This document shows, piece after piece, positions 12,717-25,433 of a DNA stretch of 64,000 nucleotides. Position 1 is the first letter of the stretch; each line of letters opens with the position of its first letter. A program made the position numbers and the translations under genes. The stretch is from Escherichia coli (GTDB lineage Bacteria; Pseudomonadota; Gammaproteobacteria; Enterobacterales; Enterobacteriaceae): NCBI RefSeq assembly GCF_050920415.1, contig NZ_CP169309.1. One strand, written 5' to 3'. The notes under the pieces were generated by a model. It worked only from the letters and a program-made list of their open reading frames with translations, was not told where the DNA came from and made no database searches.

Positions 12717-12809
12717 GGTGAGGTGGCCGAGAGGCTGAAGGCGCTCCCCTGCTAAGGGAGTATGCGGTCAAAAGCTGCATCCGGGGTTCGAATCCCCGCC
12801 TCACCGCCA
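12717..12809 (+). tRNA. serV: tRNA-Ser (anticodon GCU)
   Basis: 93-nt cloverleaf with long variable arm, anticodon GCT, 3' CCA encoded. Confidence 0.95.
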
Positions 12810-12812
12810 TTT

Positions 12813-12889
12813 GCATCCGTAGCTCAGCTGGATAGAGTACTCGGCTACGAACCGAGCGGTCGGAGGTTCGAATCCTCCCGGATGCACCA
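12813..12889 (+). tRNA. argV: tRNA-Arg (anticodon ACG), copy 1
   Basis: 77 nt gcatccgtagctcagctggatagagtactcggctacgaaccgagcggtcggaggttcgaatcctcccggatgcacca. Confidence 0.95.
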
Positions 12890-13088
12890 TATTCTACGAA
12901 ATCTTCAGCGATGAAGGTGTCGAAGAGGTGGCGGTACTAACTGCAAGCACCAGGGAGGATAACGTTGCTTTAGCAACGGCCCGAAGGGCGAGCCGTAAGG
13001 CGAGTAATCCTCCCGGATGCACCATCTCTTACTTGATACGGCTTTAGTAGCGGTATCAAAAAATCTGCAGTAAAGTAAGTTTCCCGAT

Positions 13089-13165
13089 GCATCCGTAGCT
13101 CAGCTGGATAGAGTACTCGGCTACGAACCGAGCGGTCGGAGGTTCGAATCCTCCCGGATGCACCA
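13089..13165 (+). tRNA. argY: tRNA-Arg (anticodon ACG), copy 2
   Basis: Identical 77-nt sequence. Confidence 0.95.
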
Positions 13166-13362
13166 TATTCTACGAAATCTTCAGCGATGAAGGTGTCGAA
13201 GAGGTGGCGGTACTAACCGCAAGCACCAGGGAGGATAACGTTGCTTTAGCAACGGCCCGAAGGGCGAGCCGTAAGGCGAGTAATCCTCCCGGATGCACCA
13301 TCTCTTACTTGATACGGCTTTAGTAGCGATATCGATATCAGCAGTAAAATAAATTTCCCGAT

Positions 13363-13439
13363 GCATCCGTAGCTCAGCTGGATAGAGTACTCGGCTACGA
13401 ACCGAGCGGTCGGAGGTTCGAATCCTCCCGGATGCACCA
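13363..13439 (+). tRNA. argZ: tRNA-Arg (anticodon ACG), copy 3
   Basis: Identical 77-nt sequence. Confidence 0.95.
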
Positions 13440-13637
13440 TATTCTCCGAAATCTTCAGCAATGAAGATATCGAAGAGGTAGCGGAATTAACCGCAGGCAC
13501 CAGGAGGGATAACGTTGCGCCAGCAACGGCCCGAAGGGCGAGCCGCAAGGCGAGTAATCCTCCCGGATGCACCATCTCTTACTTGATATGGCTTTAGTAG
13601 CGGTATCAATATCAGCAGTAAAGTAAGTTCTCCCGAT

Positions 13638-13714
13638 GCATCCGTAGCTCAGCTGGATAGAGTACTCGGCTACGAACCGAGCGGTCGGAGGTTCGAATCC
13701 TCCCGGATGCACCA
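13638..13714 (+). tRNA. argQ: tRNA-Arg (anticodon ACG), copy 4
   Basis: Identical 77-nt sequence. Confidence 0.95.
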
Positions 13715-15031: not shown

Positions 15032-16615
<1,584 letters not shown>

Positions 16616-16621
16616 CAGAAA

Positions 16622-16696
16622 AGAAAAAGGCCACTCGTGAGTGGCCAAAATTTCATCTCTGAATTCAGGGATGATGATAACAAATGCGCGTCTTTC
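16622..16696 (-). ncRNA. micA: sRNA MicA (SraD), sigmaE-dependent regulator of ompA
   Basis: Reverse complement reads gaaagacgcgcatttgttatcatcatccctgaattcagagatgaaattttggccactcacgagtggcctttttc, with terminal hairpin and U-run. Confidence 0.9.
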
Positions 16697-16702
16697 ATAT
16701 AC

Positions 16703-16730
16703 TCAGACTCGCCAGGGAAGAAAGAGTTCA
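16703..16730 (-). promoter_or_regulatory. sigmaE-type promoter of micA (-35 gaactc, -10 tctga)
   Basis: Elements upstream of MicA 5' end on minus strand. Confidence 0.5.
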
Positions 16731-16764
16731 GAAAATTTTTAAAAAAATTACCGGAGGTGGCTAA

Positions 16765-17280
16765 ATGCCGTTGTTAGATAGCTTCACAGTCGATCATACC
16801 CGGATGGAAGCGCCTGCAGTTCGGGTGGCGAAAACAATGAACACCCCGCATGGCGACGCAATCACCGTGTTCGATCTGCGCTTCTGCGTGCCGAACAAAG
16901 AAGTGATGCCAGAAAGAGGGATCCATACCCTGGAGCACCTGTTTGCTGGTTTTATGCGTAACCATCTGAACGGTAATGGCGTTGAGATTATCGATATCTC
17001 GCCAATGGGCTGCCGCACCGGTTTTTATATGAGTCTGATTGGTACGCCAGATGAGCAGCGTGTTGCTGATGCCTGGAAAGCGGCAATGGAAGACGTGCTG
17101 AAAGTGCAGGATCAGAATCAGATCCCGGAACTGAACGTCTACCAGTGTGGTACTTATCAGATGCATTCGTTGCAGGAAGCGCAGGATATTGCGCGTAATA
17201 TCCTGGAACGTGACGTACGCATCAACAGCAACGAAGAGTTGGCGCTGCCGAAAGAAAAGTTGCAGGAATTGCACATCTAG
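16765..17280 (+). CDS. luxS: S-ribosylhomocysteine lyase (AI-2 synthase)
   Basis: 171 aa; HTLEH metal-binding motif. Confidence 0.97.
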
Positions 17281-17293
17281 TCAATTGAAGAGG

Positions 17294-17326
17294 CCGGGCA
17301 GGTGATATCACCGCCCGGTTTTTATT
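17294..17326 (+). terminator. rho-independent terminator after luxS
   Basis: ccgggc / gcccgg stem followed by tttttatt; sits between convergent luxS and the HD-kinase gene. Confidence 0.7.
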
Positions 17327-18437
17327 ACCTGTCAGTCACCCGATATTCCACGCTATGTGCTTCATCAGGTTGAGGAACTTCCAGCCTTGAGGCCATCCGC
17401 ATCACGACCGCTTCAGGAACGGCATACTCGCGCCTGGCATTTTGCTGCTTCCATTGCGCCCACGGTACTTCCAGATAAACGATTTTTACTCGTGCACCGT
17501 AAGCCGTAAACAGACTGATGAGCTGGCTACGCAACTGGCGGGTAATGTTCGTTGCATTCCAGATGAACGGCTTCTTCTGGCGTAAAAAAACGCGCGCTTC
17601 TTCTTTTGCCTGTTGCACAATACGCCCGGTGGCGGTTTTGTCGTCCGGACTGGCATTGATTCGCCGCCGCATATCATCAAGGCTGATAACGTTCACTCTC
17701 TGGCACTGTTCACTGATAAAGCGATCTTTGCCCATACCCGGTAAACCACACAGCAAAATAACCTCAAAAGATTCAGCCTCCCAGGGAACAAAATCAGGAG
17801 AACTTTGTTCATGGGTCAGGTAATGCCAGCGTGCGGAATCCGAAGCGAATGAACGCACTTTTCCCCAGCATTGTTGCTCCTGGCAAAATAGCTCGAACAG
17901 ATCGATGCGTTCCAGCATTGATTGCTGATCATGACAATGGCGACCAAGCAGATCGGCACGAGCAAGCAAAGCGAGCAGACGCGTGTCGATACGCATTGCA
18001 GCCGTGAGCAGCAAACGCTCCGGTTCCGGACGTTCCAGTAACCATAGCGGTAACCCATGCAGACGCACCAGTGCAACAATTTGCTCGCGTAGCACGAACG
18101 GCGTCGGGATATCGCGCCATAAAATTTGTCGGGCCGTCAATTCACCCCGACGAGCATGACCAGGAGACTGAATACGTCCGTTTTCCTGCACGGTAGTACT
18201 GCGCTTTTCAACGTCATGCAATAACGCCGCCGCCCATAAAATTTCCTGCTGCTGAGCGGGGAGTTGCTGAAACTCAGCCATCGCAACGAGTGCGTTCAGC
18301 ACCATTTCAGTATGCACACCAACGTCGCCTTCACCATGATGCTCCGGGTCTTGCGGCGTGTTATGCATATCCTCAACCCAGCTAAAACGCTGGCGTAGCG
18401 TCGACCAGCGTTTGTCGTCGGTAAGTTGCCAAATCAT
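17325..18437 (-). CDS. HD-domain phosphohydrolase fused to P-loop (polynucleotide-kinase-like) domain; putative RNA end-healing enzyme
   Basis: 370 aa; N-terminal [10 protein letters not shown]...LLHDVEK; C-terminal Walker A GLPGMGKD then LDDMRRR; start overlaps upstream ligase stop (ATGA). Confidence 0.6.
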
Positions 18438-19141
18438 GACTGTTCTCCATAAGCGAACTCATGGGCCATCCGCGCCCGTCGCCAGTGGCGTTTCCAGTGC
18501 TCGGTGGTTTTGACATGATTTTTGCGTACATACTTGAAGACGTTATGCGAAAAGTCAGCGACGGAAAACGCATCACTATTCCGGCTGACAATGCCTTCCA
18601 GCGTACAGGGTTGCCCGGTTTGCGTATCCCAGGGATCGAACGCGCCGCGCGCATTGGTCAGCGCCAGAAAATCACGTTGCCAGCTTTTTTCATCATTCCC
18701 CGGCTGCGGGCCGGAGATTTCGGGAACGCAGGGGAAATCAAACAGAGCGGCGTAAAACTGCACCTCTTCCCAGCTCAGCCACATATCCTGGCAGCGAACG
18801 GCAAACAGATAAAAATCCTGCTCCAGGGCGCGATATTCAATCGAATGAACGGCATAAAGATTTTCACCAAACAACTCCAGATCGCCGAGATCGTTTTTCA
18901 GCAGTTGCCAGCGTTGGCGAATTTTATAGGTCCATGCCGATTGTGTAGGCGCGGCATGGGAACGGGCAAACACGCCGTAGCGGTTAAGGCAGTTATTTTC
19001 ACCGTCGAGTTTTTCTGTGTGCACCAATTGCGTGATGGCCTGTAAATCCTGCCAGTAATCGGTGTTAATACGGTCATCGCTGGTGGTGCCAGGGGAGAAA
19101 GGATAATGCCAGGTTCTCCCGTATTTACGTTGGGTATTCAT
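18434..19141 (-). CDS. compact ATP-dependent RNA ligase domain protein (Rnl2/Rnl5-like nucleotidyltransferase)
   Basis: 235 aa; motif [10 protein letters not shown], motif [11 protein letters not shown], motif IV LEGIVSR, motif [12 protein letters not shown] in canonical order. Confidence 0.65.
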
Positions 19142-25242: not shown

Positions 25243-25351
25243 TATTTTTGTTCATCAGGTGATGATTAAGCTGGAAATCAATAATAGCGGATGTTGATGA
25301 ATATGGGATGAAAGATAGATTGTTGAAATGTGCGGTGTGGTTTGTAGACAT

Positions 25352-25423
25352 GATAAGACGCGCCAGCGTCGCATCAGGCATTGTGTACAGAGCGGCGGAT
25401 GAGGCAAAAACGCCTTATCCGCC
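25352..25423. repeat. pair of REP-like palindromic units between ygaY and proX
   Basis: gataagacgcgccagcgtcgcatcaggca and gcggcggatgaggcaaaaacgccttatccgcc. Confidence 0.55.
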
Positions 25424-25433
25424 CGAGTAAAAA

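Follow-up and report, generated by a model that had tools for sequence, protein, structure and literature searches.

A canonical micA small RNA gene between gshA and luxS in an Escherichia coli genome

The micA locus and its neighbours

The DNA analysed here is a stretch of 64,000 nucleotides from Escherichia coli (the window), and part of it is the E. coli csrA-gshA-luxS-emrAB region. In the interval that separates gshA from luxS, the minus strand carries micA, the gene for the small RNA MicA (SraD). The genes of the locus are as follows (window coordinates, strand, feature and basis).

15059-16615, plus strand: gshA (glutamate-cysteine ligase), convergent with micA, stop codon TGA at 16613-16615; open reading frame list and RefSeq annotation of a near-identical strain
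16624-16696, minus strand: micA (MicA sRNA, 72-73 nt); Rfam RF00078 and identity to K-12 b4442
16696, minus strand: micA +1, a G
16765-17280, plus strand: luxS (S-ribosylhomocysteine lyase), divergent from micA; open reading frame list and annotation

The Rfam model of MicA (RF00078), whose gathering score is 41, matches 16625-16696 on the minus strand with 83.9 bits; the match covers model positions 1-75 of 75 with no truncation (E = 1.4e-11 for the whole 64-kb window). All 73 annotated nucleotides of K-12 micA (b4442, NC_000913.3 2814802-2814874) are identical in the window copy, and a 195-base alignment with K-12 MG1655 around micA contains a single difference, which lies outside the RNA. 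The original prediction had named MicA at this place and proposed alignment with reference MicA as the check; the alignment leaves the terminal hairpin undisrupted, and both the Rfam score and the complete identity to K-12 bear out the assignment. The present analyses found no evidence that contradicts the MicA identification. The locus is almost certainly the canonical E. coli micA between gshA and luxS. The gene is thus already known and wholly canonical, and the published picture of it is unchanged. The RNA with its terminator, the flanking genes and their orientation and the geometry of the sigma-E-type promoter all agree with K-12 MicA, and the one base that differs is in the promoter spacer, at -18 (16714). 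From this likeness we infer that the strain would behave as K-12 does.

The 5' end that had been predicted for MicA, 16696, is exact. The predicted 3' end, 16622, runs 2-3 nt too far, and is better placed at 16624 (the equivalent of the K-12 annotation) or 16625 (the Rfam match); because 16622 lies inside the U5CU4 tail (16628-16619), the offset is within normal 3'-end heterogeneity. The distance of 7 bp from the gshA stop codon to the end of MicA that accompanied that coordinate is correct for it, and becomes 9 by the K-12 annotation. The order and orientation were also read correctly, since the open reading frame list and the K-12 gene order agree that gshA (plus) converges on micA (minus) and that micA diverges from luxS (plus). 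This arrangement was described as a known feature, and the literature on K-12 micA and luxS concurs. The chief use of the micA locus here is as an anchor, which confirms the csrA-gshA-luxS-emrAB region and fixes its orientation.

Conservation within the species is high. The 401 bases around micA match 5423 of 5426 complete E. coli genomes, with 100% identity in strain MFDS1022581. Relative to K-12, the 149-bp intergenic region (16616-16764) has 1 difference and the 2222-bp span from gshA to luxS (15059-17280) has 63, so conservation is higher in the non-coding spacer than in the genes on either side. RefSeq gene coordinates of the near-identical strain MFDS1022581 coincide exactly with the open reading frames of the window, and its RefSeq (PGAP) record (NZ_CP169399.1) has nothing annotated between gshA and luxS. 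The gene is therefore omitted from the public annotation of that strain though present and intact, and the present analysis shows micA where the annotation of a near-identical genome lacks it.

RybB and MicL are other enterobacterial sigma-E-dependent sRNAs, and they share the promoter type of MicA. Like MicA, they are Hfq-dependent and repress mRNAs of outer-membrane proteins or lipoproteins through a 5' seed. Their sequences and loci differ from those of MicA, and neither RybB nor MicL has an Rfam match within the 64-kb window. A documented cis-antisense overlap with the leader of a neighbouring gene distinguishes MicA from RybB and MicL (PMC2956633).

The sigma-E-type promoter and its conservation

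The micA promoter of E. coli was described as having a 16-bp spacer, a 6-bp discriminator and an AT-rich upstream element, with an invariant "AA" in the -35 element and an invariant "C" in the -10 element, and MicA is absent from an rpoE deletion strain of K-12 (Udekwu and Wagner, 2007; PMC1851643). Upstream of the MicA start at 16696, the minus strand of the window reads TGAACTC-N16-TCTGA-N6-+1, and it has the AAC of a sigma-E -35 element, a TCNNA -10 element with its C, a spacer of about 16 nt, a discriminator of about 6 nt and AT-rich sequence upstream. The elements are as follows.

16703-16707, minus strand: micA promoter -10 element TCTGA (-11 to -7); pattern match and cross-species conservation
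16724-16730, minus strand: micA promoter -35 element TGAACTC (-34 to -28); pattern match and cross-species conservation
16732-16749, minus strand: AT-rich UP-like element with a T-tract at -45 to -50 (16741-16746); conserved T-run
16714, minus strand: single-nucleotide difference from K-12 at -18 of the promoter spacer, where the micA strand carries T and that of K-12 carries A; sole difference in the 195-nt alignment

Within the 64 kb, GAACTY-N15-17-TCTGA is matched at a single site (16703-16729, minus strand), compared with 0.13 matches expected by chance. A sigma-E-type promoter had been predicted within about 60 bp of the luxS start, and this holds: the luxS ATG at 16765 lies 58-62 bp from the -10 element and 35 bp from the edge of the -35 element (16730). 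The RpoE dependence of micA in this strain is taken from K-12 and would be expected to apply; the promoter differs only at the unconserved -18.

A scan with the exact 27-nt MicA seed, taking one genome per species, yielded 120 other Enterobacterales loci, including those of Escherichia, Citrobacter, Enterobacter, Klebsiella, Pantoea, Erwinia, Serratia, Yersinia, Pectobacterium, Dickeya and Rahnella; because the search pattern fixes nucleotides 1-27, their invariance is not independent evidence. At every locus with sufficient flanking sequence among these 120 species, gshA lies 3' and luxS 5' of micA, which is encoded on the strand opposite to the two genes. A distance of 68-93 bp separates the micA start from the luxS ATG in 107 of 117 species (69 bp in the window), and one of 74-99 bp separates the gshA stop from the micA start in 111 of 112 (81 bp in the window).

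An initial strict sigma-E regular expression missed 64 of 119 species, which have GAAAC or TCTTA/TCTCA elements, and a per-column count was used instead. By this count the promoter core is strongly constrained: AAC at -32 to -30, T-11, C-10 and A-7 are invariant in all 110 distinct upstream sequences, T-9 is kept in 109 of them, and the T-run at -50 to -45 is nearly invariant (1.4-1.9 bits per column).

Few columns of the promoter are as variable as -18 (A33/C37/G36/T4 in the 110 distinct sequences). In E. coli the variant is rare. The exact 85-mer around 16714 occurs in 2 of 5426 complete genomes, and the other 5421 that match do so with at least one mismatch each. Since -18 is not conserved between species, the change is most likely neutral. 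T at -18 also falls in the luxS 5' UTR, and there is a slim chance that it measurably changes MicA output together with a shift in pathway balance; such a change would mark a lineage with an altered balance between the envelope-stress and AI-2 pathways.

RNA structure, target pairing and the luxS leader

MicA consists of a 5' single-stranded region, two stem-loops, an A/U linker and a U-tail; the 5' region serves target pairing, Hfq contacts the 6-nt linker and the poly(U) tail, and repression of OmpA in vivo is Hfq-dependent (summarised in PMC4618604). The centroid fold of the minus-strand transcript from the window has the same order of elements, with nucleotides 1-22 unpaired, stem-loop 1, an AAUUUU linker, a terminator hairpin and a U-run, and its z-score against shuffles is -3.07. 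A terminator scan recovered the hairpin of the fold. The parts of the RNA are as follows.

16672-16689, minus strand: target-pairing seed in the single-stranded 5' region, MicA nt 8-25; fold and ompA pairing
16653-16674, minus strand: stem-loop 1, MicA nt 23-44; centroid fold, with pairs kept in 94 distinct species sequences
16647-16652, minus strand: A/U-rich linker AAUUUU, the published Hfq-binding site; unpaired in the fold, Hfq from PMC4618604
16619-16646, minus strand: Rho-independent terminator, with the GGCCACU/AGUGGCC hairpin at 16629-16646 and the U5CU4 tail at 16619-16628; terminator scan and fold

Pairing with ompA was predicted from the first 26 nt of MicA and the K-12 ompA sequence, since ompA lies outside the window. 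Nucleotides 7-25 of MicA pair with positions -22 to -5 of the ompA mRNA at -23.1 kcal/mol, and the duplex covers the Shine-Dalgarno region; none of 1000 shuffled seeds reached this energy on ompA. Prediction with the whole molecule and the ompA leader gave an unrealistic 65-nt long-range pairing, and the seed-only prediction was preferred.

The two stems are almost invariant between species. Standard pairs occupy 95.2% of the stem cells in 94 distinct RNA sequences, compared with 32-56% in slid controls (maximum 55.8%). In the terminator stem 6 pairs are invariant, and the seventh, at the base of the terminator loop, changes from AU to UA or GC in 8 sequences; stem-loop 1 has one pair with a compensatory change from GC to AU in 5 sequences. 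Covariation support is thin, at two pairs only, because the stems vary so little.

Variation in the loops bears on whether the region instead encodes a small protein. The mechanical list of open reading frames does contain two candidates, a 48-aa minus-strand frame (16552-16698) and a 46-aa plus-strand frame (16637-16777). Across species, both hairpin loops commonly carry indels whose length is not divisible by three, and these are incompatible with a conserved frame. Moreover, the ATG of the 48-aa frame (16698-16696) has its first two bases upstream of the MicA 5' end, outside the transcript, and this frame runs antisense through the end of gshA. The 46-aa frame begins at a GTG within the terminator hairpin and, in a different reading frame, overlaps the start of luxS. 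We consider a protein-coding function extremely improbable, and the region is read here as an RNA gene.

The luxS gene of E. coli has three transcripts (Udekwu, 2010; PMC2956633). A sigma-S-like promoter within gshA drives the longest, P1, whose first nucleotide is a G at position -332 relative to the AUG. Leaders of luxS run antisense through micA, and their processing depends on MicA and RNase III. The short species R3, itself dependent on MicA and RNase III, has a 5' end that overlaps MicA by 14-15 nt (PMC2956633). Position -332 corresponds to 16433 of the window, which is a G, and a C followed by a TATGAT -10-like box stands at 16419-16425. The P1 start and the promoter sequence upstream of it are present and identical to K-12, and at the sequence level nothing differs from the published system of luxS leader, MicA and RNase III. 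With P1 starting at 16433, the long leader would be fully antisense to MicA and the micA promoter would lie inside the luxS 5' UTR. The transcript features are as follows.

16433-16764, plus strand: predicted long luxS leader, beginning at the P1 position of the literature and covering micA entirely in antisense; PMC2956633, G at 16433
16682-16696, plus strand: overlap of 14-15 nt between the short luxS transcript R3 and the MicA 5' end; coordinates inferred from PMC2956633

Given that luxS leaders do span the micA DNA (PMC2956633), the region might be only a luxS 5' UTR and promoter, its resemblance to MicA a by-product of conserved luxS regulation. A weak sigma-70-like match of the plus strand (ATGATA-18-TATACT, 9/12, at 16674-16703), inside micA and directed toward luxS, could be taken in the same sense. 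This match is probably due to chance (1 found against 0.4 expected), and it predicts a start at about 16710, whereas the mapped luxS 5' ends are at about 16682/3. The minus strand, on the other hand, holds a complete transcription unit, which runs from the invariant sigma-E core and a start through a structured RNA to a U-tailed terminator, and the K-12 MicA of identical sequence was detected experimentally (PMC1851643). A locus that serves luxS only is therefore very improbable, and micA stands as a gene in its own right.

The hairpin at 16629-16646 could be mainly a bidirectional terminator of gshA, with MicA secondary. It begins 14 nt past the gshA stop, its stem is palindromic enough to function on either strand, and no evidence of a polycistronic gshA-luxS message is cited by Udekwu (2010; PMC2956633). 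However, the plus strand continues after the hairpin as AAAAUUUCAUCUC, which has no U-run, and the terminator scan reports the hairpin on the minus strand only. In addition, P1 transcripts of luxS start inside gshA and read through the hairpin (PMC2956633). We regard a mainly gshA-terminating role as unlikely; such a role would in any case be compatible with MicA, which was identified independently.

Sequence identity, RNA structure, promoter motif, synteny and complementarity to ompA are features of this DNA itself, and they fit the following course of events. On envelope stress, sigma-E RNA polymerase would start at 16696 on the minus strand, from a promoter placed in the luxS upstream region, and transcription would end at the GGCCACU/AGUGGCC hairpin and U-tail just beyond the gshA stop. 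The product is expected to be an Hfq-binding RNA of about 72 nt, whose single-stranded 5' end would repress ompA and other envelope mRNAs in trans by pairing at their ribosome-binding regions. Towards the long luxS leaders MicA would in addition be a cis-antisense RNA of perfect complementarity, and RNase III would cut these leaders in a MicA-dependent manner. Here sigma-E dependence, Hfq binding, ompA repression and RNase III processing are carried over from the literature rather than from this strain, and presumably apply to it.

The original prediction held that the tight arrangement couples sRNA expression to the luxS upstream region. A link of this kind is published, which supports the claim; the published link is mainly post-transcriptional, through the cis-antisense overlap. 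MicA overexpression left the LuxS protein level unchanged (Udekwu, 2010; PMC2956633). Coupling is best understood as physical and at the level of transcripts only, because the effect on LuxS protein was left unclear by a 2015 review (PMC4618604).

Other features of the window

Accessory genes occur close to the micA locus. Between luxS and emrB, at 17325-19141 on the minus strand, are two overlapping genes that are absent from K-12. The first encodes a protein of 370 aa with a kinase-like AAA_33 domain and a weak N-terminal HD match, and the second a protein of 235 aa of the RNA-ligase family (PF09414); the pair looks like an RNA-repair-type accessory cassette. A PADLOC scan of these two genes gave no defence-system match. 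Of 5426 complete E. coli genomes, 999 have the cassette at the same place, and 970 of these 999 carry versions only 90-95% identical, so the allele of the window is uncommon.

Other RNA genes were found at some distance from micA. Downstream of csrA, at 12717-13714, a tRNA-Ser gene is followed by four identical tRNA-Arg genes about 275 bp apart, matching the serV-argVYZQ cluster. At 25347-25424 on the minus strand, between an MFS transporter gene and proX, is a match to the Rfam family naRNA4/CssrE (RF02564), with 63.5 bits against a gathering score of 59.5.

The distal part of the window has degraded and prophage-like elements. A tRNA-Ile gene (47721-47796) is followed by a degraded island with ypjCB, frameshifted AIDA-repeat autotransporter pseudogenes and a recombinase fragment. 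Alignment with strain MFDS1022581 has 4 SNPs in the first 51 kb, and an indel at 51028 then shifts the register. From about 55.9 kb to 64000 there is a prophage-like block with an integrase, an excisionase, XRE-type regulators, Lar and Ash.
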